Source of the DNA: Leucoraja ocellata
Lineage: Eukaryota
Assembly (NCBI GenBank): GCA_036785375.1
Contig: JAWMAR010000070.1
Coordinates: 4,030,001 to 4,094,000, forward strand
Direction of reading: 5' to 3'
DNA length: 64,000 bases
The notes under the pieces were generated by a model that saw only the letters and a program-made list of their open reading frames with translations, was not told where the DNA came from and made no database searches. Position 1 is the first letter of the stretch. Each line of letters begins with the position of its first letter. The translations under genes were made by a program, and so were the position numbers. Below, piece after piece: positions 217-29,800 of this stretch.

Positions 217-534
217 TTTCAGGCGCACTGTGGGCTGAGAGCGAAGTGCGAGGGGTTGTGGGAAGAACGATCTCAATCGATTGTCACTATGCAGCAGTGT
301 ACCGCTCACACACAAAATACTGGTGCCGTGAGACAAGCCGCCAGTGTACACATGTAGTGGAAACAAATGGGAAACGTGGACAGAGCGGAAGAGTGTCAAT
401 CACAGATAACCCGGCACGAGGAATATTTACTGTGACCGTGGAGGATATTCACTCTGGAGATACAGGATGGTACAGATGTGGAATTACTACACCTGGCGAA
501 CCAACATTTAAAGTGCATCTCCAAGTATCTGAAG
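217..534 (+). CDS. Gene A V3 exon, CD300/pIgR-like V-set Ig domain
   Basis: IDCHY..KYWC-x6-C..DTGWYRCG motif; cttcag| acceptor, GAAG|gtaggt donor; 318 nt. Confidence 0.9.
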
Positions 535-3500
535 GTAGGTTTCTCAGTGAGTGACTTGATGTCTCCACTTTGGCAACGGGCAAAATATTTGTTAGGTGGG
601 AATCTGGTGCACAGTTCTGGTCGCCGCTTTATAAAACAAAAGATGTGAAAGGTTTGTAGAGTTTACAGAAACATGTTCACCCGGATATTTAGTAATATTT
701 TACAAATGTAACATTGAAACTGATCCTGTGGCCCACAGAGTCCTCACCAACTAGCGATCACCGGTCACACTAGTTCTATGTTATTCCACTTCCCCATTCG
801 CTCCCTGCACACAATTCTACAATACCGCCATTCACACACCTCATTAGTGCAACAGTATCACTATCAACTATTTTATGCAAGGAAATTAAAAAGTTGTCGA
901 TAGTGATTCTGTTGCACTAATGAAGTGTTTGAATGTTGATATTGTAGAATTGTGGCAGAGGTTTAGATTAAAACATATTAACGGCAGATGCTGGAATTGT
1001 AAAACAAAGAGAGATGGTGCTGCTGTGTCCTGGCACAGTGGCAGACATGGTAGTTCTGGCAGCTGGGAGGATGGAGAGGCACAGAGATAATTAAATCTGG
1101 TAAATTGTGTGGAGAATGAGCAGGGAAGACTTACAAGGATGTTGCGATGACTTGAGGACCTGGCATACGGGGAGAGTTTGAGCAGATTGGGGTTTTATTT
1201 CTTGGAGCGCAGCAGGATGTGGGTTGATCTGATGGCAGGTAAAACATTATGCGAGGAATAGATCGAGTAAATACACAGAGTCTTTTACTCAGAGTAGGGG
1301 AATCCAGAACCGGAGGACATATGTTTAATATGAGGGGGGAATGATTTAACAAGAACCTAGGGAGTAATGTTTTTACATAAAGGTTGGTAGGTACATGACA
1401 TGAACTGCCGACAGAAGTAGTTATGGCAGGTACTATCGTAACATTTAAGAAAATATTGGACAGTTATATGAATATGATATGTTTAGAGGATTAAGGGCCA
1501 AGAAAGGGCAGGTGGAACTAGTGCAGATTGGGCGTGTTGGTCAGCGCGGGCAAGTTAGACCGAAGGGCCTGTGTCTACGCTGCATGACTCTATGACTCTA
1601 TGTAGATGGATGGGTTAGATTCCAACTTGGCGTCTCTGGCTAAGATACAGAGATGGCGGATATTGGCGATTTTCAGATGTTTACTCAGTGTCTGACTGTT
1701 TGCTCCTTTCCCACAGAACCCGTGTCTGTTCCTGTGCTTGGATTCCTGTCACCAGCCAATGTTTCCTGTCTCGGGGGCTCAGTGACAGTGTCCTGTGAGT
1801 CGGTCCGGGGATCGCTTCCCATTAGCTACACCTGGTATGAAAAGACCCCATCTGGGGATTCAAAGATCTCAGACAACAGAGCCCTGGATCTACATTGTCA
1901 ATCCTTCAAACACCAGCACCATCAATATTCTTGCACAGCCTCAAATAATAATGGATCAAAATCCAGTGAAATGGTCAACGTGTCCATCTCCAGCAGTGAC
2001 GTGCCCTGCAGTTTCCTAGTGAAAATCAACGGCACTGGTAAGTAGTGGAGGGAATGAGGAGAAGAAGGGGAAGTGGGGGTGGGGTGGTTCATAAGATCAC
2101 GTGATAGAAGCAGAAATAGACCATTCAATCATGGCTGATCTATCTCCCCTCTTCATCCCATTCTCCTGCCTTCTCCACATAACCCCCGACACCCTGAAAT
2201 CCATGCACGTTATTTAAATGAAGGAATTATGGCCCATTTGTCAATACTTGGTTGCTGGGCTCCAGACATAGATTCCCCAGCGCTGGTGTAGATCAGCTTC
2301 CTGGCTAGAACTTCCTCTTATGTTTACACAGCTTTAAACTGGGTTTGCAGTGACATCAGCCCAAGCACTTTCACTTTCCCGCCATCATCGCCACATGACC
2401 GACACTCAAATATGGGAAGGGAACAGAAACTAGCAGTAAATGTGGCCACAGTTAACTCGTGGACGACGGTATCAGATTTGGTCCACTGTGTTAATGTTGA
2501 CCATTCAGTGCCATCGATACAATCCCATTTACCAGCACCTCGTCCATTGTGGCAATTCAGGCACCTCAGTTTTCTGCGTTTAAAAATATGTCTTGAGACC
2601 CTTGAAACATCCTGCTCATGAACTTAACCATATGTTCTCCACATTTACACATGTCTGTCGTGCAAGTTTTTCTAAAAATACTTAATCTTTGCAGCTCACA
2701 GTTTTGCACACCTGTAATAGGTCCCCCATTCCTCACCTGTTCTGCATGGACTTTTATAAAGCCCCTTCCAACCCCTCCCCATAACTGTAATGTTTCATCC
2801 CAAGCAATATTCCTCTCAAGTGAAATTGCACTCTTTAGATTACATTATGGATACAGGTTTGAAACAGGCTCATCGGCCCACTGAGTACACACAGTCCAGT
2901 ATTCACCAATAGACTAGTTCCATAGGGACAATTTACAAAGCCAATTAACCTACACACCTGCACGACTTGGAACGCTGGGGGAAACTGGAGCACTTGAAGA
3001 AACCCACGCGATCACAGGTAGGAGGGACACATTCCGTATAGACAGCATCCGTAGTCAGGATCAAACCTGGGTCTCTGGCCCTGGAAGGCAGCAACTCCAC
3101 CGCTGCGGCACCGTGCCGTCTACAGAGCCAACGTGGTTAAAAGCATTCCTGCTTATCATGACAACATCTCCCATTTGCTGCAAATCGGAAAATCATACCT
3201 CCTTGCTCAACTGCAAGTGAAAAGCAGTGAAACTGGATTTTATTTCCTTGTTCCAACAGGTCATGAATATTCTTGTGAAAATTCGATAACATCCAATTAC
3301 TCTGCAAGGTAAACCGCTCTGTTTCCAATGAAAATTGCATGTACTAATTGCTGGTGTTTTGATTGGGAATGCTTTAATTGGGGGAAAGTTGTTCCTTCCT
3401 TTCACTGGCATTAAATGCGTGAGAGTATTGATCTGAATGCACAGTGGCAAAGCCTATAGAAACACAGTCTCGCAACGCCACGACATAGGTTTAATGGGTG

Positions 3501-6500
3501 TTGTCTGTGTGTGATCTGCATGTTTTGCCTTTAATTGTGTTGGTTTCATTCAGTTTCCTCCCAGCTCCCAAAGATGTGCCAGTTGTAAATTGTCCCATGT
3601 GTACAGGAGAGTGGCTGAATCTGTGAAGAATGGGTGGGGTGGGGGAGGGGGCAGGGGGGTGGGTGGGGGTGGGGTGGTAGTTGATGAGAAAGTGGGGGAA
3701 ATAAAAATAGGATTGACACAGGAATCATGTGAATGCAGTTGACGGAAATGGCCTGTTTCTATACTGTGTTTCTCTATGGGTCTTTGATCCAATTAACCTA
3801 AATGTCACGAAGCACAATTGTTGTACAAGTTTCAAGCCTGACACCAAATATAACGTATCTATTAAATATTATTTAATACAATAAATATAACTTGCAAACC
3901 AGTTATTAGTTAACTCATCAGAAGGGGAATCGCACTGGTTTACATCTCATTGTGTTGTGTACATGCTTGGATTATAAGAACAAGTTCCTCCATTTGATGC
4001 TTTTCAGAGAGCGCTCCCTGCAGTATTCAACATGACTGCTCCATCACTCACCTCATCCCATGCTGTGAGATTAATATAGTTCCCAAACCTTAGTCTTCCA
4101 GTTTAGCTTTGCTGTGAATTCCTCTTGTGTGGTGCTGATAGGAAAATGCTTTATGAATGATGGGCTACGCCACACTCCCCATGATATCACTTGTGGCAAC
4201 ACCTTGTCATTGATGGGACCATACACCATAAAGTCGCTGGCGCAGAATGTCAGAAAATTGTCTTGAATCAGACCGAATACAGCAAAATGAGTTAACTGAC
4301 TCTCTCTTACTTGTTGATAATTGAAACCATTAAACATTCAATCATAATGTATTCATGAAAATGAGAACACTTTGTTATTTATCTTAATACAATTGAAATA
4401 TATCTGACTTTCTATCACACTCTTGTGTTATACTTGCGTTAGCAAATGTTCATGAAAGCCACGCCGTTATGAGCGAATCTTTAACCGACTTTTCGAACAC
4501 AATTCCTCCATCCACACACCTACCGCGTTGATCCACGAAGTATCCAGGGCGTGACATTAAGCATAATCATTTTAAAATTTATTTTATTAATTGGCCTCAT
4601 CTGTTTCCATTTTTGTTGCCCATCTCCCTTCCATTATTGGAATTGATCCGTTTTTATTATTCCTATCCCAATGGATTTTATTATAAACTTCCTTGCAGCT
4701 GCATTTTATTTCTTCCAGGGTATCACACTGTTCTTTGTATCCTTCCACATCCACAGTTTCCCTCTCCCGTGACTCTCAGTCTGAAGAAGGGTCTCGACCC
4801 GGAACTTCGCGCATTCCTTCTCTCCAGAGAGATGCTGCCACTCCCGCTATTTCTCCAACATTTTGTGTCCATCTGTTTTGTATTCACTGCCCCAACTCAT
4901 TGTATTCCACTGCCCCGACTCATGACTTATTTAGTCTGAAGAAGGGTTTCGGCCCGAAACGTTGCCTATTTCCTTCGCTTCATAGATGCTGCTGCACCCG
5001 CTGAGTTTCTCCAGCTTTTTTGTGTAATCTCGTGATTTATTTATATGTCTTCTCTGAATCCATTTAACCGCGTAGTCTCTCATTCCCAGTCTTGTATCCA
5101 TGCCCCAGCAATGACGTCAACAATTGGTGATCATATGTTGTCCCCCCCCGCCTCCCCACAGTGGAACACCCGTTCTTTTACAAAGATGGTCTCCACTGAC
5201 GCTGCCGCTTCGCCCCGCTCCACTTCACCAAGATTACGAAGCAATTAACAGGTAAATGCTGCAAAGATTAACCGTCTCGTTTCCTCCCATTGACTCTGTA
5301 TTTCTTGACCTTTGCCCAGTTACATCTCATGGAAAGTGGGGCGCTGGATGTTCTTTCTCCTGCTTGTGATCTGGAGTATCTCAACCGCGGTGTTCGCAAG
5401 AGGCTCAAAGGTAGGGTTTACTGTCATCATGTTCATAAATTATAGGAGCAGAATTAGGCCATAGAAACATAGAAAATAGGTGCAGGATTAGGCCATTCGG
5501 ACCTTCGAGTCTGCACCGCCATTCAATATGACCATGGCTGATCATCCAACTCAGTATCCTGTACCTGCCTTCTCTCCATACCCCCTGATCCCTTTAGCCA
5601 CAAGGGCCACATTTAACTCCCTCTTAAATATAGCCAATGAACTGGCCCCAACTACCTTCTGCGGCAGAGAATTCCAGAGATTCACCACTCTCTGTGTGAA
5701 AAAGGTTTTCCTCATCTCAGTCATACAAGATTTCCCCCTTACCTTTAAACTGTGACCCCTTGTTCTGGACTTCCCCAACATCGGGAACAATCTTCCTGCA
5801 TCTAGCCTATCCAACCCCTTAAGAATTTTGTAAGTTTCTATAAGATCCCCCCTCAAACTTCTAAATTCTAGCGAGTACAAACCGAGTATATCCAGTCTTT
5901 CTTCATATGAAAGCCCTGACATCCCAGGAATCAGTCTGGTGAACCTTCTCTGTACTCCCTCTATGGCAAGAATGTATTTCCTCAGATTAGGAAACCAAAA
6001 CTGTACGCAATACTCCAGGTGTGGTCTCACCAAGACCCTATACAACTGCAGTAGAACCTCCCTGCTCCTATACTCAAATCCTTTTGCTATGAATGCTAAC
6101 ATACCATTCGCCTTCTTCACTGCCTGCTGCGCCTGCCTGCTTACTTTTAATGACTGGTGTACCATGACACCCAGGTCTCGTTCCATCTCTCCCTTTCCTA
6201 ATCGGCCACCATTCAGATATACGTCTACTTTCCTGTTTTTGCCACCAAAGTGGATAACCTCACATTTATCCACATTATACTGCATCTGCCATGCATTTGC
6301 CCACTCACCCAGCCTATCCAAGTCACCTTGCAGCCTCCTAGCATCCTCCTCACAGCTAACACTGCTCCCCAGCTTCGTGTCATCCGCAAACTTGGAGATG
6401 TTGCATTCAATCCGCTCGTCCAAATCAATAATATATATCGTAAATAGCTGGGGTCTCATCACTGAGCCTTGCGGTACCCCACTAGTCACTGCCTGCCATT

Positions 6501-8458
6501 GTGAAAAGGACCCGTTTACTCCTACTCTTCCTGTCTGCCAGCCAGTTCTCTATCCACATCAACTAACACATCTAATCATAGACTAACTGGTCTGTAATAC
6601 CCCGTTTTCTCTCTCCCTCCCTTTTTAAAAAGTGGGGTTACATTAGCTACCCTCCAATCCTCAGGAACTACTCCAGAATCTAAAGGGTTTGAAAAATTAT
6701 CACTAATGCATCCACTATTTCTGGGGCTACATCCTTAAGTACTCTGAGGTGCAGCCTATCTGGCCCTGGGGATTTATCGGGCTTTAATCCATTCAATTTA
6801 CCTAACACCACTTCCCGGCTATCCTGGATTTCACTCAGTTCCTCCATCTCATTTGACCCTCGGTCCCCGGCTATTTCCGGCAAATTATTTATGTCTTCCT
6901 TAGTGAAGACAGAACCAAAGTAGTTATTCAATTGGTCTGCCATGTCCTTCTTCCCCATGATCAATTCACCTGTTTCTGACTGCAAGGGACCTACTTTTGA
7001 TTTAACGAATCTTTTTCTCTTCACATATCTATAAAAGCTTTTGCAGTCAGTTTTTATGTTCCCTGCCAGTTTTCTTTCATAATCTATTTTTCCCTTTCCT
7101 AATTAAGCCGTTTGTCCTCCTCTGCTGGTCTCTGGATTTATCCCAGTCCTCTGGTAGGCTGCATTTTCTGGCTAATTTGTACGCTTCATCTTTTGTTTTG
7201 ATACGATCCCTGATTTCCCTTGTTATCCACGGATGCACTACCTTCCCTGATTTATTTTTTTGCCAAACTGAGATGAACAATTGTTGTAGTTCATCCATGC
7301 AGTCTTTAAATGCCTTCCATTGCATATCCACCGTCAACCCATTAAGAATCAATTGCCAGTCTATCTTGGCCAATTCACGTCTCGTACCCTCAAAGTTACC
7401 TTTCTTTAAGTTCATGACCTTTGTTTCTGGATTAACAATGCCACTTTCCATCCTAATGAAGAACCCAACCATATTATGGTCACTCTTGCCCAAGGGGCCA
7501 CGCACAACAAGATTTCTAACTAACCCTTCCTCATTACTCAATACCCAGTCTAGAATAGCCTGCTCTCCCGTTGGTTCCTCTACATGTTGGTTTATAAAAC
7601 TATCCCGCATACATTCCAAGAAATCCTCTCCCTCCATTGAGCTCATCATATCTAATCGGCCCCCAATCACGGCTGATCTATCCTTCTCTCTCGATCCCAT
7701 TCACCTGCCTTCTCCCCATAACCATTGACATCCTTATTTATCAAGAAAATGAAAATCTCCGCATTAAAAATATCAATTAATTTGGACAGATACAAAAATG
7801 CTGGGGTAGCTCAGCGGGACAGGCTGCATCTCCGGTGTGAATTAACTTTGCCTCCACAGCCTCCTGTGGCAATGAAATCCATAGATTTACCAGAAGGGAT
7901 TCGCCCAAAGCAATCCCGTCTCTTCGCCGAATGTGTCCAAACGGTTTCCATTAATGCTTTCATATATCCTGTCCATCGATAGAAACAGAAATCGTGCACG
8001 TTTTCATATCCTGAAGTTAAACCAAATCTCTATGTAGATGAGTTTTTAAGAGGGAACTGCAGATGCTGGAGAATCGAAGGTTACACAGAAAAGCTGGAGA
8101 AACTCAGCGGGTGCAGCAGCATCTATGGAGCGAAGGAAATAGGCTTCGCTCCATAGATGCTGCTGCACCCGCTGAGTTTCTCCAGCTTTTCTGTGTAACC
8201 CTCTATGTAGATGATATCACGAGGTTTTGTCACGTTGTACGCGTGCAGGGTGGATTTCTGTGCCCGGTGTGGGTTCGTTGGCAGTGGATTAGCTAATTCG
8301 TGGATTAGCATCTTGCAGGCAGCAATGTGTTGGGAGTGGTCGGGTCAAATAAAGCGTTGTTCCCACTGTCAGAGAGTCTTCACATTTGACTTCACATTTG
8401 TCTTTTGCAGAGACGCGATGACACAGAACCTCGCCACTCGACCCACGAATTACAATGA
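217..8458 (+). CDS. Gene A (5'-incomplete): MDIR/CD300-like Ig receptor, activating type; exons 217-534, 1717-2037, 3260-3308, 5162-5251, 5320-5410, 8411-8458
   Basis: All junctions are AG/GT with consistent phases (1-1, 1-1, 1-2, 2-2, 2-0, 0-stop); the frame is open; paralogous to gene B exon by exon. Confidence 0.75.
1125..1600 (+). mobile_element. Degenerate CR1-type LINE 3' end (also ~17815-18290 and, interrupted by L1, in genes C and E)
   Basis: Decayed RT C-terminal sequence ending in (gactctat)2-like tail; boundaries approximate. Confidence 0.6.
1717..2037 (+). CDS. Gene A C2b exon, FCRL/PECAM-like C2 Ig domain
   Basis: VSCESVRGSLPISYTW...YSCTASN; ccacag| acceptor, ACTG|gtaagt donor; 321 nt. 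Confidence 0.88.
2930..3118 (-). mobile_element. tRNA-derived HE1/V-SINE-like element (other copies ~19610-19800 -, 36180-36375 -, 38390-38670 +, 43700-43950 +, 47265-47520 +, 61940-62135 -)
   Basis: Head ggcac..cggtagagttgctgcc..gacccgggttcgatcctgactacgg plus ggagtttgtacgttctc core recurs across the window. Confidence 0.6.
3260..3308 (+). CDS. Gene A stalk exon 1 (GHEYSCENSITSNYSA)
   Basis: ttccaacag| ... CAAG|gtaaac; phase 1-2; same length and open in all four copies. Confidence 0.7.
5162..5251 (+). CDS. Gene A stalk exon 2 (Pro-rich, GTPVLLQRWSPLTLPLRPAPLHQDYEAIN)
   Basis: ccccacag| ... ACAG|gtaaat; phase 2-2; open in this frame in 3 copies. Confidence 0.62.
5320..5410 (+). CDS. Gene A transmembrane exon with Arg (YISWKVGRWMFFLLLVIWSISTAVFARGSK)
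   Basis: tttgcccag| ... AAG|gtaggg; hydrophobic helix; phase 2-0. Confidence 0.75.
5460..7637 (-). mobile_element. CR1-clade LINE, 5'-truncated, with an internal deletion; RT ORF 5551-6489
   Basis: TSGVPQGSV..LF.IY..KFADDTK RT motifs; endonuclease end (LGKSDHNMV) in ORF 7077-7700; (catagaaa)2 3' tail. Confidence 0.92.
8042..8200. repeat. Short insertion containing a perfect 57-bp inverted repeat, flanked by a 14-bp direct repeat
   Basis: Arms 8079-8135 and 8144-8200, 8-nt loop; ctctatgtagatga at 8028-8041 and 8201-8214. Confidence 0.85.
8411..8458 (+). CDS. Gene A terminal exon, short tail RRDDTEPRHSTHELQ*
   Basis: ttttgcag| acceptor, phase 0, stop followed by two AATAAA (8656, 8673). Confidence 0.6.
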   Translation, partial: RRDDTEPRHSTHELQ

Positions 8459-11001: not shown

Positions 11002-11038
11002 ATGTGGATTCCCATTCTTCTCATCGCCTCGCTGCCGG
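11002..11038 (+). CDS. Gene B leader exon MWIPILLIASLP
   Basis: aaaacaATG, hydrophobic peptide, CCGG|gtgagt; three copies in window. Confidence 0.85.
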
Positions 11039-14000
11039 GTGAGTGAAAGCCAGATCTTGATATTCCAATGTTCAATGTTAGTTGGGGTCCCGTGCACCCT
11101 TTCTACAGCACAGATGGTTAAGTGTGTGTAGACATGTAATGGGGGAGATGGAACTCAGTGCATTGTGGTGATGGATCTGAAATCACATTTGAATATCTAG
11201 ACTATGTTCGTAGTTTAACCACTGTTGACACGTGGTCTAATTGCATCCTGATGATAGATTATAGGAACAAAATAGCGAATGTATTTGGAGCAGATACTCC
11301 AAGACACCTGGACCGAAGGACAGAGGGTCTACCATCACCAGGACGTTAATTCTACACTAACAAAATGTGTTTACAACAGAGGTGGAAGTCACGATTGTGG
11401 ACTCATTGTGTCAGTTCAAATATTCCCTGCATTTGTCCATCTCAACTCTGTCGCAAACCCAACAATTCCCCGGAGTCTGAGACTGAACCACTGTCCTCGC
11501 TCTATCCACCCACTCCCAACTCTCTCTCCATCCGCTCTCGGATCCGCGGCCCAGTCGTGCTGAAATTCAAGTTCAGTTTATTGTCGCGTGTACCGAGGTA
11601 CAGAGAAAAGCTTTATGTTGCGTGCTAACCTGCCAGATACATGATTACAGTCGATCCTCTTACAGTGCATAGATACATGAATGGAAAATAGCGTTTAGTG
11701 TAAGGTAAGGCCAGCAAAGTCCGATCAAGGATAGTCCGAGGGTCACCAAAGAGGTAGATAGTTCAGCACTGCTCTCTGGTTATGGGAGGATGATTCCGAT
11801 GTCTGATAACAGCTGGGAAGAAACATTCCCCGAATCTGGCGGTGTGCGTTGTCACGCTACTACGCTCTCCGTTAATGGACCCGCTTTATTGTAACTCGTC
11901 CTCTGTCCTAAGTCAGGGCGTTGGAAAGCATTGGCGGCGGTGAATGTCTAAACACGGGTCGGCTTTCCGCGTCCGGGTGGGACTCGAGAAGGACCAGGCG
12001 CTGTCCACGGGCACCTGGGGGATTTCCGGGACATCTGGGCACCGCCTGCGGTTGAATACATCCTTGACAAGCATTGTAACATAGTTGTATAGTAGTGTAT
12101 TTAGTATATTTGTTTGTCTTGTATTATGGTGCTGGGTTCTTGTTTTATTGTAGTGTAAATATTATTTTTAATAATGGAATAAATTATTTGATAATTAAAA
12201 AAAACACGGGTCCGGCCCAGTGTCGGTTGAGAGATGAATGTTGGCAGCGTAGCCGGCGGCACCGCCAATAAAATAGCAAAGTGGGGTCTTTCTGTGGGGT
12301 GAGAGGCCGGGCACCGCCTGGGATTGTTGAAAGGCAGCTCCTGCAACACTGCCGCGCTCCCTCAGTGCCGCACTGCGATCCCAGCCCAGTTTCTGTTCAG
12401 GGATCTGGAGTGGGAATTGAACACAAATTGTACTGACCCGGGGACAGAACACCGACAGAACTGGTACAATAACATCACTGCCTGCAATTCAGACCGGAGA
12501 CATTGGGCGTGAAGCAATATGACATATCATGGAACTATTTAAGTTTTCTTTCATGTAATCTTCAAAATGTATCTATTTCCACTAAACTGTTCATTTGCTC
12601 TCCATCTGAAAGTTTCTCCCCTTCAGTTTCAGGTGCAGTGTGGGGAGAGATGTATGTAAGAGGGGTTGTGGGAAGTGCGATTACAATCGATTGTCACTAT
12701 GCAGCAGAGTACCGCTCACACACAAAATACTGGTGCCGTGTGCAGAATCGCCAATGTACAGATATGGTGGAAACAATTGGGCTACGCGGAAGGAGTGGAA
12801 GAGTGTCAATCACAGATAACCGGGCACGAGGAATATTTACTGTGACTGTGGAGGATCTTCTCTCTGGCGATACAGGATGGTACAGATGTGGAATTGCAAC
12901 ATCTAACGGCCTCCCAATGTTTCCCGTAGAACTCCTTGTATCTGACGGTACGTTTCGCAGCGATTGACTTGTCGTCTCCACTGACTCGCCACTTCCCGCC
13001 ATTCTGCAAAGGACCCGTTCACTCCTACTCTTTGCTTCCTGTCTGCCAACCAATTTTCTATCCACGTCAACACCCTTCCATGCGCTCTCAATTTAGTCAC
13101 CAGTCTCCCGTGCGGAACCTTATCAAAGGATTTCTTGAAGTCTAGATACACCACATTCACTGGCTCACCTTCGTCCATTTTACTTGCCACCTCCTCAAAA
13201 AATTCCAGAAGATAGTCAGGCATGATTTTCCTTTCATAAATCCATGCTGAATTGGACTAATTATTTTACTGGTATCCAAATGCCCCATTATTACCTCTTT
13301 AATAATTGACTCCGGCATCTTTCCCGCCACCGAAGTCAGGCTAACTGCTCTGTAATTTCCCGTTTTCTCTCTCGCTCCTTTCTTGAAAAGTGGGATTTAA
13401 CTTCACTTTTCACTTCAAGTGGAATACTCAGCGCATTTCCCTTCCTCTGAACTGTATGAAATGTCACCCGTCAGAAATTTGCATTCAGACTCAAACTAAT
13501 AATCCCAGTGAGAAACAAGTGTTGTTTGATCTGTCGTTGATCTGAAAGTTTCTCCCCTCAGTTTCAGATGCAGTGTGGGCAGAGAGGGATGTAAGAGGGG
13601 TTGTGGGAAGAGCGATCACAATCGATTGTCACTATGCAGCAGCGTACCGCTCACACACAAAATACTGGTGCCGTGGGAGGAATCACCCGTGTAGAGTTTC
13701 AGTGGAAACAAATGGGCAAAACGGACGGAGTGGAAGAGTGTCAATCACAGATATACCGGCACTAAGAATATTTGCTGTGACTGTGGAGGATCTTCACTCT
13801 GGAGATACAGGATGGTACAGCTGTGGAATTACTACACCTGGCGACCGTCCAATATTTAACGTACATCTCCAAGTATCTGACGGTACGTTTCGCAGCGATT
13901 GACTTGACGTCTCCACTGAAATGCCTGATCTATGTTCTCTCCGGGAAGGGTCAGGGCAGCACCGATATCCCGAGGCTCCGCAGCAGTGCAGAGACCTGCG

Positions 14001-17000
14001 GGGAACGGGCGGGGGTCGGGAAACCCCACTCATGTTGCTCTCACACAGTGCGGGCTCTGTTCCACTGAGCGGCCACCCACGTCAAGTGGGATGCTCAGCA
14101 CATTTCCCTGCCTCTGAACTGTATGAAATGTCACCCTGTCAGAGGTTTGCATTCCGACTCAAACTAATAACCCGACAGACTCCGCAACTCCCTGGTCAAC
14201 TCGTCCTTTCCCACCCCGTCCCCAGATACCTTCCCCTACAACTGCAGGAGATGCAACACCAGTCCCTATGTATCCCGCTTCTACTCCGTCCAAGGCTCCA
14301 ACAGTATTTCCGGGTGAGTCAGAGGTTCACTTGCATCTCTTCTAACCTCCTCTACTATATCCGCTGTTCCAGGTGTGAACAAGCGGATACAGTAGATGGG
14401 AGACCCAACGCAGGCTCGGCGATCGTTTCGCTGAACAATTCCGCACAGTGTTCCTCGGCCTACGCTACATCCCGATTGCAAAACACCTTTATTCACCCTC
14501 CCATTCCCAAACTGATCTTTCTGTCCCGGACCTCCTCCCCTGCAGAGTGAGGCCAAAAGCAAATTGGAGGAACAGCGCCTCATATTTCGCTTGGGCAGCT
14601 TACAACCCAGCGGTTTGAATATTGACTTCTCTAACTTCAAGTAACCCTTGCTTTACTCCTGTCTCCATCCCGCCCCATCCGAAGCCTCCAATTATTTTCA
14701 CTGCCCTCCAGCTTATATTTTACTGATTCTATGCCTTCCCTTCAGCTGACAATGATCCATTCTACATTTTTTTTAAACATTTTCACCTTTGATCACTTGT
14801 TTTCACACCGTACCCTTCCATTTCTCTTCTGTCTCCCTTTCTCATGATTCTCAGGCTGAAGAAGGGTCACGATTCGAAACGTCACCCATTCCTTCTCTCG
14901 AAAGATGCTGCCTAATCCGCCGAGTTACTCCTGCATTTTGTGTCTATCTTAAAGGGACGTAACATCCCAACATATGTTCTGCGGGACAACATTTTCCACA
15001 CATTGGGTGATATTTATATGGAACCTGCTGCCAGGGGAAGGTGTTAAGGCAGTTAGAATAGCAGCATTTAAAATATTTTTTTGATATTTGCGTAGATTGT
15101 GATCATTGCGAGTGATAAGGGAGAAACGTGGACATATGGAAATGGTCCAGAAAGACATGTTGATCGGCATGAATGAGCTGTTGTGATGGGCATCTTTCGG
15201 TTCTGTATAACTCTAACCTTCTCCAGTTTCTGGGCTTCGCACACTCACAGAGATGTAGATGAGCCGGTGAGATATCAACCGGACGGTTCGGGCTGAGATA
15301 AAGGGCTGCTGAGATTTAGCACGTGTTTGGTTTTTAACTGTTCATACAGGTGACTGAATGTTTGCTCCATTCCCACAGAACCCATGTCTGCTCCTGTGCT
15401 CAGATATCTGTCACCAGCAAATGCCTCACATCTCGGAAGCTCAGTGTCAGTGTCGTGTGAGTCTGTCCGTGGATCCCTTCCCATCCATTACACATGGTTT
15501 GAAAAGAACGAGCATTGGGTTTCAACGATCTTGTCTGGCAATCAACTGGATCTGAGTTGTGAAATCCTCGAAGGTCAACACCATCAATATTACTGCAGAG
15601 CCACAAATAATCATGGGACAAAATCCAGTGAAATACTCAACGTGAAAGTCTTCAAAGGAGCAGGAACGTGCAGTTATGTGACAGAAATGAACAATGCAGG
15701 TGAGTGTTATTCTCGTGTCCCTGAACCTGCTGCTATTCATTCACCTTGTGGTGATGTTCATGGATTTCTTGTTATTTGCAGACGGCATCATTGCAGCCAC
15801 CGGGAGCTCATGATGTAAAATGAGAGAGTTTGTTTGGGGGACTGGTAAATGATTGCCTGTTGCTTTGACCTGGGAGGTGTTGAGAAATTTCAGCAAATGA
15901 GAGAAATACCTGCGGGTTGAGTGCATTCCATCAAAATTATTTTCTGGCTGCCGCACTTTGAGACAGAGAAAGAAACCAAATTCATTCTGTTTGGATCCAT
16001 CGTCAGTTATAACCAAGGATGTACAATTTCATGATCATATTCATGATTTTAACTCTGTTAATTTGTGTTAAACTCCAGTAATCTCACAAAATTAAATTGG
16101 AATCTACTTGGCCGTCACTCCATCAAGTATAACCCTTACTTTTATCAAAGATAATTTTGAAAAGAACTTCCCTGTAGGTGTGGAGACGCTCATATTGGAA
16201 GTCCAGAAGAGAGTGTGAATGGTTTACATCAGCGAGGCCAATTTTATACAAGGCCAGTTCTTAATAAACTATTACAGTGTCATTCGCCCTTGAGTCTTTA
16301 TTACAAGATTTAATTCACCCTCCACTAAATGTTCTTATGTTCTTTTGGTTATTATCATCTTATTTTCCCTTGTGCATAATCTTTATAGATAATTGATTTT
16401 GTCACATGAGCAAAAAACATAAATTAACTAATTTACGCCAAAATAATTTCATTCGCCCTTGGGTGAACCATTCATCAGTTTAAGAAGCACTGGCCTAGGC
16501 CACAATTTCGCCGAACACTTATGTTTGGTTTGTCATGACCCAGAATCGCGCATGATAGACACCCCATCCTCAACCTCGCCCGCTGATGCAGAGCAGCAGC
16601 AGTTTGCACCATCTGCACGATGCACTGCAGTAACTCACCAAGACTCCCTAGACAGCGCCTTCCAATTGCAAGAGGCTCCGTGTTCAATGCATCATTCTTC
16701 ACCATTCACACCCATTGGCTGGGAAGCGCTTTGGAACGACCTGTGCAGATGGTGAGGGCCGGTGTACAGTATCTGTCTCTCATCGCAATCTAGGTGGAAT
16801 TCAACACAGCTAAGAAAATGAGTCGGCGGACTCCCTTGTATACTAGAATGTGTATGTTTGTGAAAGGCTAATTTTACTCTTCAATTTATGAAAGATTTTT
16901 CCTTCAGTTTCAGGCGCACTGTGGGCTGAGAGTAAAGTGCGAGGGGTTGTGGGAAGAGCGATCTCAATCGATTGTCACTATGCAGCAATGTACCGCTCAC

Positions 17001-20000
17001 ACACAAAATACTGGTGCCGTGAGACAAGCCGCCAGTGTACACATGTAGTGGAAACAAATGGGAAACGTGGACAGAGCGGAAGAGTGTCAATCACAGATAA
17101 CCCGGCACGAGGAATATTTACTGTGACCGTGGAGGATCTTCACTCTGGAGATACAGGATGGTACAGATGTGGAATTACTACACCTGGCGAACCAACATTT
17201 AAAGTACATCTCCAAGTATCTGAAGGTAGGTTTCTCAGTGAGTGACTTGATGTCTCCACTTTGGCAACGGGCAAAACATTTGTTAGGTGGGAATCTGGTG
17301 CACAGGTCTGGTCGCCGCTTTATAAAACAAAAGATGTGAAAGGTTTGTAGAGTTTACAGAAACATGTTCACCCGGATATTTAGTAATAGTTTACAAATGT
17401 AACATTGAAACTGATCCTGTGGCCCACAGAGTCCTCACCGACTAGCGATCACCGGTCACACTAGTTCTATGTTATTCCACTTCCCCATTCGCTCCCTGCA
17501 CACAATTCTACAATACCGCCATTCACACACCTCATTAGTGCAACAGTATCACTATCAACTATTTTATGCAAGGAAATTAAAAAGTTGTTGATAGTGATTC
17601 TGTTGCACTAATGAAGTGTTTGAATGTTGATATTGTAGAATTGTGGCAGAGGTTTAGATTAAAACATATTAACGGCAGATGCTGGAATTGTAAAACAAAG
17701 AGAGATGGTGCTGCTGTGTCCTGGCACAGTGGCAGACATGGTAGTTCTGGCATCTGGGAGGATGGAGAGGCACAGAGATAATTAAATCTGGTAAATTGTG
17801 TGGAGAATGAGCAGGGAAGACTTACAAGGATGTTGCGATGACTTGAGGGCCTGGCATACAGGGAGAGTTTGAGCAGATTGGGGCTTTATTTCTTGGAGCG
17901 CAGCAGGATGTGGGTTGATCTGATGGCAGGTAAAACATTATGCGAGGAATAGATCGAGTAAATACACAGAGTCTTTTACTCAGAGTAGGGGAATCCAGAA
18001 CCGGAGGACATATGTTTAATATGAGGGGGGAATGATTTAACAAGAACCTAGGGAGTAATGTTTTTACATAAAGGTTGGTAGGTACATGACATGAACTGCC
18101 GACAGAAATAGTTATGGCAGGTACTATCGTAACATTTAAGAAAATATTGGACAGTTATATGAATATGATATGTTTAGAGGATTAAGGGCCAAGAAAGGGC
18201 AGGTGGAACTAGTGCAGATTGGGCGTGTTGGTCAGCGCGGGCAAGTTAGACCGAAGGGCCTGTTTCTATGCTGTATGACTCTATGACTCTATGTAGATGG
18301 ATGGGTGAGATTCCAACCTGGCGGCTCTGGCTAAGATACAGAGATGGTGGATATTGGCGATTTTCAGATGTTCACTCAGTGTCTGAATGTTTGCTCTTTT
18401 CCCACAGAACCCATGTCTGTTCCTGTGCTTGGATTCCTGTCACCAGCCAATGAACCCTGTCTCGGCGGCTCAGTGTCAGTGTCCTGTGAGTCGGTCCGGG
18501 GATCCCTTCCCATTAGCTACACCTGGTATGAACAGACCCCATCTGGGGATTCAAAGATCTCAGACAACAATGCCCTGGATCTACCTTGTCAATCCTTCAA
18601 ACACCAGCACCATCAATATTATTGCACAGCCTCAAATAATAATGGATCAAAATCCAGTGAAATGGTCAACGTGTCCATCTCCAGCAGTGACGTGCCCTGT
18701 AGTTTCCTAGTGAAAATCAACGGCACTGGTAAGTAGTGGAGGGAATGAGGAGAAGAAGGGGAAAGTGGGGGTGGGGTGGTTCATAAGATCACGTGATAGA
18801 AGCAGAAATAGACCATTCAATCATGGCTGATCTATCTCCCCCTCTTCGCCCCATTCTCCTGCCTTCTCCCCAAACCCCCGACACCCTGAAATCCATGCAC
18901 GTTATTTAAATGAAGGAATTATGGCCCATTTGTCAATACTTGGTTGCTGGGCTCCAGACATAGATTCCCCAGTGCTGGTGTAGGCCAGCTTCCTGGCTAG
19001 AACTTCCTCTTATGTTTACACAGCTATAAACTGGGTTTGCAGTGACATCAGCCCAAGCATTTTCACTTTCCCGCCATCATCGCCACATGACCGACACTCA
19101 AATATGGGAAGGGAACAGAAACTAGCAGCAAATGTGGCCACAGTTAACTCGTGGACGACGGTATCAGATTTGGCCCACTGTGTTAATGTTGACCATTCAG
19201 TACCATCGATACTAATCCCATTTACCAGCACCTCGTCCATTGTGGCAATTCAGGTTCCTCAATTTTCTGCATTTAAAAATATGTCTTGAGACCCTTGAAA
19301 CATCGTGCTCCTGAACCTAACCATATGTTCTCCACATTTACACGTCTGCCGTGCAGATTTTTCTAAAAATACTTACTCTTTGCAGCTCACAGTTTTGCAC
19401 ACCTGTAATAGGTCCCCCATTCCTCACCTGTTCTGCATGAAGCCCCTCCCAACCCCTCCCCATAACTGTAATGTTTCATCCCAAGCAATATTCCTCTCAA
19501 GTGAAATTGCACTCTTTAGATTACATTATGGATACAGGTTTGAAACAGGCTCATCGGCCCACTGAGTACACACAGCCCAGTATTCACCAATAGACTAGTT
19601 CCATAGGGACAATTTACAGAAGCCAATTAACCTACAAACCTGCACGACTTTGGAACGCTGGGGAAACTGGAGCACTTGAAGAAACCCACGCGATCACAGG
19701 TAGGAGGGACAAATTCCGTATAGACAGCATCCGTAGTCAGGATCAAACCTGGGTCTCTGTCCCTGGAAGGCAGCAACTCCACCGCTGCGGCACCGTGCCG
19801 TCTACAGAGCCAACGTGGTTAAAAGCATTCCTGCTTATCATGACAACATCTCCCATTTGCTGCAAATCGGAAAATCATACCTCCTTGCTCAACTGCAAGT
19901 GAAAAGCAGTGAAACTGGATTTTATTTCCTTGTTCCAACAGGTCATGAATATTCTTGTGAAAATTCGATAACATCCAATTACTCTGCAAGGTAAACCGCT

Positions 20001-23000
20001 CTGTTTCCAATGAAAATTGCATGTACTAATTGCTGGTGTTTTGATTGGGAATGCTTTAATTGGGGGAAAGTTGTGCTTTCCTTTCACTGGCAATAAATGC
20101 GTGAGAGTATTGATCTGAATGCACAGTGGCAAAGCCTATAGAAACTCAGTCTCGCAACGCCACGACATAGGTTTAATGGGTGTTGTCTGTGTGTGATCTG
20201 CATGTTTTGCCTTTAATTGTGTTGGTTTCATTCAGTTTCCTCCCAGCTCCCAAAGATGTGCCAGTTGTAAATTGTCCCATGTGTACAGGAGAGTGGCTGA
20301 ATCTGTGAAGAATGGGTTGGGGAGGGGGCAGGGGGGTGGGTGGGGGTGGGGGTGGTAGTTGATGAGAAAGTGGGGGAAATAAAAATAGGATTGACACAGG
20401 AATCATGTGAATGCAGTTGACGGAAATGGCCTGTTTCTATACTGTGTTTCTCTATGGATCTTTGATCCAATTAACCTAAATGTCACGAAGCACAATTGTT
20501 GTACAAGTTTCAAGCCTGACACCAAATATAAACGTATCTATTAAATATTATTTAATACAATAAATATAACTGCAAACCAGTTATTAGTTAACTCATCAGA
20601 AGGGGAATCGCACTGGTTTACATCTCATTGTGTTGTGTACATGCTTGGATGATAAGAACAGGTTCCTCCATTTGATGCTTTTCAGAGAGCGCTCCCTGCA
20701 GTATTCAACATGATTGCTCCATCACTCACCTCATCCCATGCTGTGAGATTAATATAGTTCCCAAACCTTAGTCTTCCAGTTTAGCTTTGCTGTGAATTCC
20801 TCTTGTGTGGTGCTGATAGGAAAATGCTTTATGAATGATGGGCTACGCCACACTCCCCATGATATCACTTGTGGCAACACCTTGCCATTGATGGGGCCAT
20901 ACACCATAAAGTCGCTGGCGCAGAATGTCAGAAAATTGTCTTGAATCAGACCGAATACAGCAAAATGAGTTAACTGACTCTCTCTTACTCGTTGATAATT
21001 GAAACCATTAAACATTCAATCATAATATATTCATGAAAATGAGAACACTTTGTTATTTATCTTAATACAATTGAAATATATCTGACTTTCTATCACACTC
21101 TTGTGTTATACTTGCGTTAGCAAATGTTCATGAAAGCCACGCCGTTATGACCGAATCTTTAACCGATTTTTCGAACACAATTCCTCCATCCACACACTTA
21201 CCGCGTTGATGCACGAAGTATCCAGGGCGTGACATTAAGCATAATCATTTTAAAATTTATTTTATTAATTGGCCTCATCTGTTTCCATTTTTGTTGCCCA
21301 TCTCCCTTCCATTATTGGAATTGATCCGTTTTTATTATTCCTATCCCAATTGATTTTATTATAAACTTCCTTGCAGCTGCATTTTATTTCTTCCAGGGTA
21401 TCACACTGTTCTTTGTATCCTTCCACATCCACAGTTTCCCTCTCCCGTGAGTCTCAGTCTGAAGAAGGGTCTCGACCCGGAACTTCACGCATTCCTTCTC
21501 TCCAGAGAGATGCTGCCACTCCCGCTGTTTCTCCAACATTTTGTGTCCATCTGTTTTGTATTCACTGCCCCAACTCATTGTATTCCACTGCCCCGACTCA
21601 TGACTTATTTAGTCTGAAGAAGGGTTTCGGCCCGAAACGTTGCCTATTTCCTTCGCTCCATAGATGCTGCTGCACCCGCTGAGTTTCTCCAGCTTTTTTG
21701 TGTAATCTCGTGATTTATTTATATGTCTTGTCTGAATCCATTTAACCGCGTAGTCTCTCATTCCCAGTCTTGTAGCCATGCCCCAGCAATGACGTCAACA
21801 ATTGGTGATCATATGTTGTCCCCCCCCCCCCCCCCCCCGCCTCCCCACAGTCCAACACCCGTTCTTTTACAAAGATGGTCTCCACTGACGCTGCCGCTTC
21901 GCCCCGCTCCACTTCACCAAGATTATGAAGCAAATAACAGGTAAATGCTGCAAAGATTAACCGTCTCGTTTCCTCCCATTGACTCTGTATTTCATGCCGT
22001 TTGCCCAGTTACATCTCATGGGAAGTGGGGCGCTGGATGTTCTTTCTCCTGCTTGTGATCTGGAGTATCTCAACCGCGGTGTTCGCAAGAGGCTCAAAGG
22101 TAGGGTTTACTGTCATCATGTTCATAAATTATAGGAGCAGAATTAGGCCATAGAAACATAGAAAATAGGTGCAGTAGTAGGCCATTCGGACCTTCGAGTT
22201 TGCACCGCCATTCAATATGATCATGGCTGATCATCCAACTCAGTATCCTGTACCTGCCTTCTCTCCATACCCCCTGATCCCTTTAGCCACAAGGGTCACA
22301 TCTAAGTCCCTCTTAAATATAGCCAATGAACTGGCCTCAACTACCTTCTGCGGCAGAGATTTCCAGAGATTCACCAATCTCTGTGTGAAAAAGGTTTTCC
22401 TCATCTCAGTCATACAAGATTTTCCCCTTATCTTTAAACTGTGACCCCTTGTTCTGGACTTCCCCAACATCGGGAACAATCTTCCTGCATCTAGCCTATC
22501 CAACCCCTTAAGAATTTTGTAAGTTTCTATAAGATGCCCCCTCAAACTTCTAAATTCTAGCGAGTACAAACCGAGTCTATCCAGTCTTTCTTCATATGAA
22601 AGCCCTGACATCCCAGGAATCAGTCTGGTGAACCTTCTCTGTACTCCCTCTATGGCAAGAATGTCTTTCCTCAGATTAGGAAACCAAAACTGTACGCAAT
22701 ACTCCAGGTGTGGTCTCACCAAGACCCTGTACAACTGCAGTAGAACCTCCCTGCTCCTATACTCAAATCCTTTTGCTATGAATGCTAACATACCATTCGC
22801 CTTCTTCACTGCCTGCTGCACCTGCATGCCTACTTTTAATGACTGGTGTACCATGACACCCAGGTCTCGTTCCATCTCCCCCTTTCCTAATCGGCCACCA
22901 TTCAGATATAAGTCTACTTTCCTGTTTTTGCCACCAAAGTGGATAACCTCACATTTATCCACATTATACTGCATCTGCCATGCATTTGCCCACTCACCCA

Positions 23001-24062
23001 GCCTATCCAAGCCACCTTGCAGCCTCCTAGCATCCTCCTCACAGCTAACACTGCCCCCCAGCTTCGTGTCATCCGCAAACCTGGAGATGTTGCATTCAAT
23101 CCGCTCGTCCAAATCATTAATATATATCGTAAATAGCTGGGGTCCCATCACTGAGCCTTGCGGTACCCCACTAGTCACTGCCTGCCATTGTGAAAAGGAC
23201 CCGTTTACTCCTACTCTTCCTGTCTGCCAGCCAGTTCTCTATCCACATCAATACTGATCCCCCAATGCGTGTGCTTTAAGTTTGTATGCTAATCTCTTTT
23301 GTGGTACATTGTCGAAAGCCTTCTGAAAGTCCAGATATAACACATCCTCTCCCTTATCCACTCTACTAATTACATCCTCGAAAAATTCTATAAGATTTGT
23401 CAGACATGATTTACCTTTCATAAATCCATGCTGACTTTGTCCAATGATTTCACCACTTTCCAAATGTGCTGCTATCCCATCTTTAATAACTGATTCTAGC
23501 AGTTTCCCCACTACCGACGTTAGACTAACTGGTCTGTAATACCCCGTTTTCTCTCTCCCTCCCTTTTTAAAAAGTGGGGTTACATTAGCTACCCTCCAAT
23601 CCTCAGGAACTACTCCAGAATCTAAAGGGTTTGAAAAATTATCACTAATGCATCCACTATTTCTGGGGCTACTTCCTTAAGTACTCTGAGGTGCAGCCTA
23701 TCTGGCCCTGGGGATTTATCGGGCTTTAATCCATTCAATTTACCTAACACCACTTCCCGGCTGACCTGGATTTCACTCAGTTCCTTCATTTGACCCCGGT
23801 CCCCTGCTATTTCCGGCAAATTATTTATGTCTTCCTTAGGATACGCGTGCAGGGTGGATTTCTGTGCCCGGTGTGGGTTCGTTGGCATTGGATTAGCTAA
23901 TTCGTGGATTAGCATCTTGCAGACAGCAATGTGTTGGGAGTGGTCGGGTCAAATAAAGCGTGGTTCCCACTGTCAGAGAGTCTTCACATTTGACTTCACA
24001 TTTGTCTTTTGCAGAGACGCGATGACACAGAACCTCGCCACTCGACCCACGAATTACAATGA
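11002..24062 (+). CDS. Gene B (complete, 638 aa): MDIR/CD300-like receptor L-V-V-C2-V-C2-stalk-TM(Arg)-short tail, activating type
   Basis: Exons 11002-11038, 12627-12947, 13562-13882, 15379-15699, 16908-17225, 18408-18728, 19942-19990, 21851-21940, 22009-22099, 24015-24062 sum to 1917 nt in one open frame. Confidence 0.78.
11565..12200. mobile_element. Rex1/Babar-like LINE 3' fragment (-) followed by a Tx1-like 3' fragment (+); paralogous at ~27020-27540 and ~51265-51885
   Basis: Minus-strand ..TARFGECFFPAVIR..; plus-strand RVRVGLEKDQALSTGT followed by AT-rich tail and AATAAA. Confidence 0.45.
12627..12947 (+). CDS. Gene B V1 exon (V-set Ig)
   Basis: VSGAVWGEMYVRG..YWCRVQNRQC..DTGWYRCG; GACG|gtacgt; 321 nt. 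Confidence 0.9.
12990..13397 (-). mobile_element. CR1 RT fragment (paralogues ~29495-29778, ~54258-54660)
   Basis: VVYLDFKKSFDKVPH..WIENWLADRKQRV. Confidence 0.85.
13562..13882 (+). CDS. Gene B V2 exon (V-set Ig)
   Basis: VSDAVWAERDVRG..YWCRGRNHPC..DTGWYSCG; 321 nt, phase 1-1. Confidence 0.9.
14180..14950 (+). mobile_element. Penelope-like element fragment with GIY-YIG region and 3' terminus (paralogue ~55445-56210; tail only at ~29780-30130)
   Basis: FRVSQRFTCISSNLLYYIRCSRC..RRLGDRFAE; terminal CTGAAGA..GAAAC motif. Confidence 0.75.
15379..15699 (+). CDS. Gene B C2a exon
   Basis: VSCESVRGSLPIHYTWF..YYCRATNNHG; GCAG|gtgagt; 321 nt. Confidence 0.88.
16908..17225 (+). CDS. Gene B V3 exon
   Basis: Near-identical to 217-534; 318 nt. 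Confidence 0.9.
18408..18728 (+). CDS. Gene B C2b exon
   Basis: Paralogue of 1717-2037; 321 nt. Confidence 0.88.
19942..19990 (+). CDS. Gene B stalk exon 1
   Basis: Same as 3260-3308. Confidence 0.7.
21851..21940 (+). CDS. Gene B stalk exon 2
   Basis: PTPVLLQRWSPLTLPLRPAPLHQDYEANN; phase 2-2. Confidence 0.62.
22009..22099 (+). CDS. Gene B TM exon with Arg (YISWEVGRWMFFLLLVIWSISTAVFARGSK)
   Basis: AG/GT bounded, hydrophobic, phase 2-0. Confidence 0.75.
22149..23839 (-). mobile_element. CR1-clade LINE, at the same site as in gene A; RT ORF 22240-23178
   Basis: RT motifs SGVPQGSV, FADDTK, YLDFQKAFD; same insertion site as 5460. Confidence 0.92.
24015..24062 (+). CDS. Gene B terminal exon RRDDTEPRHSTHELQ*
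   Basis: Phase-0 acceptor; AATAAA at 24260 and 24277. Confidence 0.6.
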   Translation, partial: RRDDTEPRHSTHELQ

Positions 24063-26788: not shown

Positions 26789-26825
26789 ATGTGGATTCCC
26801 ATTCTTATCATCGCCTCGCTGCCGG
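26789..26825 (+). CDS. Gene C leader exon MWIPILIIASLP
   Basis: Paralogue of 11002-11038. Confidence 0.85.
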
Positions 26826-29800
26826 GTGAGTGAAAGCCAGATCCTGATATTCCAATGATCAATGTTAGTTGGGGTCCCGTGCACCCTTTCCACAGCAGAG
26901 ATGGTTAAGTGTGTGTAGACATGTAATGGGGGAAATGGAACTCAGTGCATTGTGGTGATGGATCTGAAATCACATTTGAATATCTAGACTATGTTCGTAG
27001 TTTAACCACCGCTAACCACCGTTTAGTGTAAGGTAAGGCCAGCAAAGTCCGATCAAGGGTAGTCCGAGGGTCACCAAAGAGGTAGATAGTTGAGCACTGC
27101 TCTCTGGTTATGGGAGGATGATTCCGATGTCTGATAACAGCTGGGAAGAAACATCCCCCGAATCTGGCGGTGTGCGTTGTCACGCTACTAACGCTCTCCG
27201 TTAATGGACCCGCTCTCCGTAAATGGACCCGTAACTCGTCCGTCCTCTGTCCTCAGTCAAGGCGTTGGAAAGCATTGGCGGCGGTGAATGTCTAAACACG
27301 GGTCGGCTTTCCGCGTCCGGGTGGGACTCGAGAAGGACCAGGCGCTGTCCACGGGCACCTGGGGGATTTCCGGGACATCTGGGCACCGCCTGTGGTTGAA
27401 TACATCCTTGACAAGTATTGTAACATCGTTGTATAGTAGTTTATTTAGTATATTTGGTTGTCTTGTATTATGGTGCTGGGTTCTTGTTTTATTGTAGTGT
27501 AAATATTATTTTTAATAATTGAATAAATTATTTGATAATTTTAAAAAACACGGATCCGGCCCAGTGTCGGTTGAGAGATGAATGTTGGCAGCGTAGCCGG
27601 CGGCACCGCCAATTAAATAGCAAAGTGGGGTCTTTCTGTGAGGTGAGAGGCCGGGCGCCGCCTGGGATTGTTGAAAGGCAGCTCCTGCAACACTGCCGCG
27701 CTCCCTCAGTACCGCACTGCGATCCCAGTCCTGTGTCTGCTCAGGGATCTGGAGTGGGAAGTGAACCCAAATTGTACTGACCCGGGGACAGAACACTGAC
27801 ACAAATGGTACAATAACAGCACTGCCTGCACTTCAGACCGGAGACATTGGCCGTGAAGCAATATGACACATCATGGAACGNNNNNNNNNNNNNNNNNNNN
27901 NNNNNNNNNNNNNNNNNNNNNNNNNNNNNNNNNNNNNNNNNNNNNNNNNNNNNNNNNNNNNNNNNNNNNNNNNNNNNNNNNNNNNNNNNNNNNNNNNNNN
28001 NNNNNNNNNNNNNNNNNNNNNNNNNNNNNNNNNNNCTCTGGACACCCAAGGACACCTTACAGGACATAAAATCGCAATACAATTATCAATATTAAAATTA
28101 AGTTGCCAAAAACCAAAAAACAAATAAATACACAAAATATTTTGTCATTAAAATCAGGGTGAACATGGTGGAAGTTATGTCGGGTATGCTAATCTAAACA
28201 GGTGTGTTTTGAGTTGTGATTTGAATTGATCGATAGTGTCCAGGTGACGGAAGGGAGGTGGGAGAGTGTTCCAGAGACGTGGGGCAGAGCAGCTGAAGGC
28301 TCTGGCACCCATAGATAGATATAGATATGCCATTTATTGTCACTATACATGTACAGTGAAACTGAAAGCTGCTCGTACTCAGTGCATACATACAATTTTA
28401 GCACAAAAAACAAGAAACAGAAAAAACAAAAAACAGAAGGGAGATGGGGGGGGGGGGGGGGGGGGAATAGGTGCACAAATTCTGCGGCGTTACATACATA
28501 TATACATATATACAGATGGAAGTCCGTGTTGGGCGGTGTAGTCAGTGCATGTGTGAATTTGAATTTATAGCTTTCATGGTGCTGAGTTTATAGCTCCCAT
28601 GGTGCTGAGTCTAAATGTGGGGACAGTTAAAATTACAGCTGAGGAGGAACGAAGTGACCGGGAAGGAGTGTATGGTAGCAGCAGGTCAGAGAGCTATTGG
28701 GGAGCAAGGTGCGGTAGTTCTTTGAAGGTCAGCAATAAAATCTTGTAGTTAATCCGGTGGTGCACAGGGAGCCAGTGGAGCTGAGTGAGGATGGGTGTGA
28801 TGTGGTCAGATGATCTGGTGCGGGTGATGATCCGGGCTGCAGAGCTCCTGCAACACCGCCACGCTCCCTCACTACCGCACTGCGATCCCAGCCCAGTTTC
28901 TGTTCAGGGATCTGGAGTGGGAAGTGAACACAAATTGTACTGACCCGGGGACAGAACACTGACACAACTGGTACAATAACAGCACTGCCTGCACTTCAGA
29001 CCGGAGACATTGGCCGTGAAGCAATATGACACATCATGGAACTATTTAAGTTTTCTTTCATGTAATCTTCAAAATGTATCTATTTCCACTAAACTGTTCA
29101 TTTGCTCTCCATCTGAAAGTTTCTCCCCTTCAGTTTCAGGTGCAGTGTGGGGAGAGATGTATGTAAGAGGAGTTGTGGGAAGTGCGATTACAATCGATTG
29201 TCACTATGCAGCAGAGTACCGCTCACACACAAAATACTGGTGCCGTGTGCAGAATCGCCAATGTACAGATATGGTGGAAACAATTGGGCTACGCGGAAGG
29301 AGAGGAAGAATGTCAATCACAGATAGCCCGGAACGAGGAATATTTACTGTGACTGTGGAGGATTTTCTCTCTGGCGATACAGGCTGGTACAGATGTGGAA
29401 TTACAACATCTAACGGCCTCCCAATGTTTACCGTAGAACTCGTTGTATCTGACGGTACGTTTCGCAGCGATTGACGTGTCGTCTCCACTGACTCGCCACT
29501 TCCCGCCATTCTGAAAAGGACCCGTTCACTCCTACTCTTTGCTTCCTGTCTGCCAACCAATTTCCTATCCACGTCAACACCCTTCCATGCGCTCTCATTT
29601 TAGTCACCAGTCTGCCGTGCGGAACCTTATCAAAGGATTTCTTGAAGTCTAGATACACTACATTCACTGGCTCACCTTCGTCCATTTTACTTGCCACCTC
29701 CTCGAAAAATTCCAGAAGATAGTCAGGCATGATTTTCCTTTCATAAATCCATGCTGACTTGGACTAATTATTTTACTGTAAACTTACAACCCAGCGGTTT

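Follow-up and report, generated by a model that had tools for sequence, protein, structure and literature searches.

Can one leader exon be spliced to any of several V exons, so that a single receptor gene yields a repertoire of ectodomains? The question is raised by gene B, one of several immunoglobulin (Ig) receptor genes in a 64,000-nucleotide (nt) stretch of the 3.44 Gb genome of the skate Leucoraja ocellata (contig JAWMAR010000070.1, here C70, positions 4,030,001-4,094,000; hereafter the window, from whose first letter positions are counted unless a contig is named). A first-pass annotation of this DNA had noted that every V exon, internal ones included, starts with what resembles the end of a signal peptide, and had proposed a cassette system of combinatorial splicing. 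Our analysis favors another reading, which we hold to be probable: the exon starts are inherited and serve as linkers in mostly full-length receptors, diversity arises chiefly in the DNA itself, and a measure of ordinary in-frame exon skipping occurs.

A skate MDIR gene and the start of its V exons

The V1, V2 and V3 domains of gene B belong to the Pfam V-set family, and Ca and Cb are Ig_2/Ig_3-like; the best solved-structure matches of the V exons are pIgR and CD300 (E 5e-53 to 3e-19). A protein search returned 94 elasmobranch relatives, including clearnose skate MDIR2 (ABC86796.1), MDIR3 (ABC86797.1) and MDIR5 (ABC86800.1); MDIR1 and MDIR4 were not among the matches of the protein searches. 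The domain types in the window are 73-91% identical to MDIR3 and MDIR5 domains and the tails 69-88%, and MDIR5-, MDIR3- and MDIR2-type tails all occur in the surrounding gene cluster. MDIRs are described as multigenic activating and inhibitory receptors related to CD300, TREM and pIgR (PMC3031540). The genes examined here combine V with C2/I domains in variable number, are closely identical to the deposited MDIRs, and form a large family with both activating- and inhibitory-type tails. Judged by its sequence, gene B is a genomic member of the known skate MDIR (pIgR/CD300-like) family. Our literature search found nothing on MDIR splicing, although Cannon 2006 and Cannon 2010 may already describe exon structure or splice variants.

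As read from the sequence, the Ig exons of gene B are bounded by AG and GT, have open frames and are all phase 1-1, and the introns measure 614-1588 nt. The expected symmetry, with every Ig exon phase 1-1 and a multiple of three long, was confirmed for V1, V2, Ca, V3 and Cb (321, 321, 321, 318 and 321 nt, respectively). Such phase 1-1 exons, like a leader divided between two exons, occur generally in the Ig superfamily.

The window contains 11 V exons or fragments, each of which starts with (V)SGA, SDA or AGA followed by VW or LW. To this extent the cleavage region is indeed encoded at the start of every V exon, but only part of the motif qualifies. In an AlphaFold2 model of MDIR5, built on a 36-row alignment and dependable in the V domains only (pLDDT about 60-90, against <50 in the C domains), the first beta strand is made by L-W-A, in the first V (residues 17-19) as in the internal V (231-233), and is preceded by low-confidence coil. 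Residue 6 of the query aligned to residue 6 of pIgR chains. Because L-W-A is strand A of the Ig fold, VW or LW is not signal peptide, and the model suggests that at most V-S-G-A, about four residues, can be a signal-peptide tail, with cleavage after G or A predicted by the -3,-1 rule. It is standard for V genes to divide the signal peptide between a leader exon, which holds its first part, and a V exon, which holds its last few residues (PMC7555362). Since the leader is split in this manner, a whole-exon copy of a first V takes the signal tail along. Each of the V exons, if joined to the leader, would likely yield an N-terminus that can be cleaved.

A cassette system would need the signal-tail codons of internal V exons to be conserved beyond expectation, and a low-power test detected no such excess. 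Between V classes, the first 11 nt carry 0-2 differences, where a synonymous divergence (dS) of 0.04-0.24 leads one to expect 0.4-2.3; P(<=obs) is 0.31-0.94 in all 9 pairs compared, which are not independent of one another. Within the genome, differences among V classes in the VSGA codons are thus as frequent as under neutral drift, and no special selection is needed. Whole-exon duplication at low synonymous divergence accounts for the retention of the motif, which had been taken as a sign of the cassette system. Within classes, the ratio of non-synonymous (dN) to synonymous divergence in the first three codons reflects few changes only. Across elasmobranch proteins, internal V starts (S 116, G 118, A 108 of 128) are conserved as much as first V starts (S 88, G 81, A 90 of 98), and some shark internal starts have decayed.

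Receptor diversity in the cluster and in gene models

The deposited MDIR3, presumably a cDNA clone like MDIR5, reads leader-V-V-Ca-V3-Cb, a string identical to that of gene B, and its chain includes both internal V starts; the string of MDIR5 is leader-V-Ca-V3-Cb. In 209 proteins of relatives, all 29 V3-class domains occupied internal positions. In a V tree of 86 rows from 29 selected proteins (84 columns), the V3 class forms the starred clade (99/94) of 23 rows, none of them in first position, from four named skate genera and the L. ocellata genome, and V0-V2 intermix with first-position domains. Of the idea that the leader could join any V exon, the cleavable N-terminus is thus likely, whereas none of the 29 V3-class domains follows a leader and one set of Heptranchias models fits such joining.

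The cluster measures about 800 kb and may extend beyond the 864 kb analyzed around the window, which hold 119 V exons and 31 leader-V-C genes (leader abbreviated L in domain strings). As parsed, these genes show 13 different domain strings, one of which is a grouping artefact. The commonest form, L-V0-V1-V2-Ca-V3-Cb, accounts for 13 of the 31, and the others have domains missing or repeated. Short strings such as L-V-Ca-V3-Cb and L-V0-V1-V2-Cb, the very forms that had been expected from splicing, are encoded as genes, and V-(C-V)n-C arrays reach eight domains. The V0, V1 and V2 exons are flanked by sequence >90% identical over about 20-50 nt upstream and about 32-38 nt downstream, while the remaining introns are unalignable and partly repeat-filled, and 3 V0 copies have a V2-type downstream flank. 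This pattern fits exon-centered conversion and unequal crossing-over.

In the reading we favor, each V exon would have been copied whole from a leader-adjacent V exon, which would place a VSGA-like start on all V exons. The main transcript would include every Ig exon, with the internal VSGA as an inter-domain linker, and minor isoforms may be added where a single V or C exon is skipped in frame in the ordinary way. Most of the ectodomain repertoire would be generated in the DNA, as V (and V-C) exons of the many genes cross over unequally and convert one another; such exon-centered recombination would keep the V starts alike and yield the shorter genes of the cluster. Gene B would be an activating-type receptor (charged transmembrane segment, short tail) paired with inhibitory-type neighbors such as gene C. 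The simpler alternative that had been offered, recent exon duplication not yet decayed, comes close, but V3 is an old, always-internal lineage and exon-centered recombination likely keeps the V exons alike.

Several observations weigh against this account. RefSeq isoform models, whose members were examined for 30 clusters, skip V or C exons in several rays: the two Mobula species lose an internal V, Rhinoraja its first C and Hemitrygon its third V, and several exons are skipped in Pristis and Leucoraja. These are short-read models among near-identical paralogues that may reflect read-through or mis-mapping; they suggest that some in-frame skipping likely occurs, and the proposal that any Ig exon can be skipped in frame has this much in its favor, being possible by phase and present in the models of these relatives. 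In the shark Heptranchias, models X1 and X2 join the leader to a V that is second in X3. An RNA search listed no data set for the window. Shallow RNA data from one relative (organism B; four runs, with the majority of reads <90% alike), mapped to gene B only (10950-18740), contained no exon-exon joint among the 15 joints listed (there were 114 more); exon bins reached 0-3.7x, two repeat-free intron bins 0, and intron repeats up to thousands-fold, which swamped the joints. The equal conservation of internal V starts may go beyond passive inheritance alone for the old V3 lineage. Just behind the donors of V0, V1 and V2 stands a 33-37-nt element that keeps 94-97% identity from class to class (about 80% for V3) and could be either a conversion tract or a candidate splicing element. 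Finally, the cDNA origin of the MDIR3 and MDIR5 entries is presumed from what Cannon 2006 reportedly describes.

The exon start could also be actively kept for reasons other than leader choice, as a second in-frame acceptor within its first six bases and a small flexible linker; we regard this as unlikely. The second AG is retained in 118 of 119 cluster V exons, the sole loss being in an exon that carries a stop. The first AG is missing at the expected place in 9 of the 119: two are one-base shifts, and the other 7 represent about 5 events, with 6 of these 7 exons open from the second AG. In the RefSeq models of relatives, 10 of the 98 first V domains lack V-S, as do 6 internal ones. V-S thus appears dispensable, which also speaks for the inherited-start reading, and the second AG likely rescues exons that lost the first, its use being read from gene models of relatives. 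The conservation of S-G-A in internal V domains across elasmobranchs points the same way, yet invariance of the Ser codon is not significant, since 11 of 34 four-fold sites in V exons are equally invariant, and the test of the first 11 nt gave no excess. Leader choice itself, in which one leader is spliced to any V exon, VSGA is kept for cleavage and each gene or cell has its own ectodomain repertoire, seems improbable. The symmetric exons, the shared downstream element, the weak-looking ACG/GTACGT donors of V0-V2 and the Heptranchias models speak for it, as do positions -3 and -1 of the cluster exons, which stay small (S 92/A 5 and A 95/S 2; n=97) while -2 varies (G 75, D 18, V 3, E 1; n=97). 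The -2 variation, however, amounts to about three events, and retention is already covered by the neutral expectation. The exclusively internal V3 class also stands against it. In Mobula birostris X4 the first V is skipped and the leader is joined to a C exon without a signal tail, so that skipping does not track the tail. Only 4 of 295 distinct V cores were both first and internal (103 first only, 130 internal only, the rest unclassed); two of the four are identical repeats inside one protein, and the other two, the Heptranchias case and a Hemitrygon first V entered from an upstream fragment, are explainable by read-through between neighboring genes.

Mutual exclusion of V0, V1 and V2 in the manner of Dscam is very improbable. 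The three tandem exons are similar and equal in length and phase, but two tandem V exons stand in one chain in MDIR3, a relative, and in Amblyraja models, and double inclusion keeps the frame, which counts against exclusion. Introns of at least 600 nt are too long for steric exclusion to apply. No docking or selector signal was seen: when the first 400 nt of the leader intron were set against 250 nt upstream of every acceptor, duplexes were at shuffle level for V and C exons alike (z -2.4 to +1.6, 11 tests, no consistent site), as was pairing between the flanks of each V exon. A mix-and-match splicing system is, in sum, possible and unsupported. Its fullest form, in which regulated splicing joins one leader to any of up to four V exons with the aid of the shared intronic element and the tandem acceptor, and cells choose their N-terminal ligand-binding domain on top of a 30-gene cluster, strikes us as a long shot.

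Feature coordinates and neighboring genes

Table 1. Features of gene B and its neighbors in the window
Feature	Position	Strand	Details
Gene A, 3' part	217..8455	+	V3, Cb, stalk, transmembrane, tail; 97% identical to gene B 3' part
Gene B leader exon, coding part	11002..11038	+	37 nt, 12 codons + 1 nt, phase 1, donor GTGAGT; start as in deposited MDIR3/MDIR5
Gene B V1 exon	12627..12947	+	pIgR/CD300-like V-set, 321 nt, phase 1-1; first V of gene B
Gene B V2 exon	13562..13882	+	V-set, 321 nt, phase 1-1; starts VSDA
Gene B Ca exon	15379..15699	+	C2/I-type Ig domain, 321 nt, phase 1-1
Gene B V3 exon	16908..17225	+	V-set, 318 nt, phase 1-1; of the always-internal skate clade
Gene B Cb exon	18408..18728	+	C2/I-type Ig domain, 321 nt, phase 1-1
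Gene B stalk exon	19942..19990	+	49 nt, phase 1-2; 87% identical to MDIR5 stalk
Gene B transmembrane exon, MDIR5 type	22009..22099	+	91 nt, phase 2-0; Arg at helix start; 87% identical to MDIR5
Gene B last coding exon	24015..24062	+	short cytoplasmic tail and stop; 69% identical to MDIR5 tail
Second in-frame acceptor AG, 6 nt inside V exons	12631-12632 (V1), 13566-13567 (V2), 16912-16913 (V3)	+	use would drop V-S
Element just 3' of gene B V donors	12948-12984, 13883-13919
Gene C	26789..41839	+	L-V1-Ca-V3-Cb, stalk, MDIR3-type transmembrane (about 39035-39133), tyrosine-motif tail (about 41573-41839)
Truncated V3 fragment, no donor (gene relic)	48617..48825	+	just upstream of gene E leader
Gene E	50699..64000	+	L-V0-V1-V2-Ca-V3-Cb, stalk; transmembrane exon starts at window end
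Gene E Ig exon starts	V0 52969, V1 53893, V2 54826, Ca 56644, V3 58172, Cb 60787	+
Element just 3' of gene E V donors	53290-53326 (V0), 54214-54250 (V1), 55147-55183 (V2)

Gene B, with its charged transmembrane segment and short tail, neighbors gene C, with its tyrosine-motif tail, and their ectodomains are near-identical; short-tail genes outnumber long-tail genes in the cluster. An open 90-nt segment bounded by AG and GT (21851-21940) lies 68 nt upstream of the gene B transmembrane exon and is found in most MDIR5-type cluster genes. It would fit in frame as an optional stalk exon, and MDIR5 is without it. As a terminal exon of gene B this segment was rejected, the true transmembrane exon having been located at 22009-22099.

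Gene E had been credited with six cassettes; six Ig exons are present, four of them V and two C. Among the V exons (52969-58489), dN/dS between classes is 0.8-3.3 (for V0 versus V2, dN 0.126 and dS 0.038), and the between-class changes cluster at loop positions. These values suggest that the gene E V classes are likely under diversifying selection on ligand binding.

Elsewhere in the cluster, two relics similar to the V3 relic upstream of gene E were found. Two genes at C70:4,578,207-4,614,859 (L069-L073), V-(Ca-V3)x3-Cb and V-(Ca-V3)x4-Cb, display tandem growth of a Ca-V3 unit. A gene at C70:3,936,616-3,943,736 (L011-L012) has indels in 6 of 6 Ig exons and adjoins a run of N, an assembly gap; it is likely an assembly error and not a pseudogene, and was excluded from the synonymous-site census. 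A V3 copy on another contig (G000:C1141:362101-362426), 96% identical, is either an unplaced part of the cluster or a second haplotype.

Comparison with known receptor systems

As a genomic map the locus is useful for the MDIR family of paired receptors, which has been little studied: domain strings appear to be rebuilt by recombination between V exons and, as a dN/dS of 1.0-3.3 among the V classes of gene E suggests, V domains diversify fast. Abundant regulated splicing of a leader to any V, if true, would be a splice-made receptor repertoire in cartilaginous fish and of interest to comparative immunologists.

The closest likeness is to the clearnose skate MDIRs, which share the leader, the V and C2/I types, the V-V-C-V-C string of MDIR3 and the internal VSGA starts; the transmembrane segment and tail of gene B are of MDIR5 type and the tail of gene C of MDIR3 type. 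The two differ in that another skate species is concerned and a whole genomic cluster is seen here, with six-domain genes the commonest. Arthropod Dscam1 has mutually exclusive, tandem duplicated Ig exons in one gene. Tandem duplication of Ig exons within a gene is common to both, whereas the MDIR exons encode whole domains, number only 2-4 V copies per gene, showed no docking or selector signal in the intron regions scanned and, in MDIR3, are not mutually exclusive.

With mammalian pIgR and CD300/CMRF35, the V-set carrying an extra C-C' cysteine pair is shared. In rabbit and cattle pIgR, D2-D3 are reported to be lost by alternative splicing (PMC9321927), and gene B and its cluster have the same kind of symmetric phase 1-1 whole-domain exons. 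Mammalian pIgR differs as a single gene with V domains only, while MDIRs mix V and C2/I domains in a large paired-receptor cluster. The split leader of Ig and T-cell receptor genes (IMGT L-PART1 and L-PART2) is likewise similar, as the V exon supplies the last signal-peptide residues (PMC7555362). In those genes, however, every V comes with a leader exon of its own and is selected through DNA rearrangement, whereas the V exons of an MDIR gene share a single leader.

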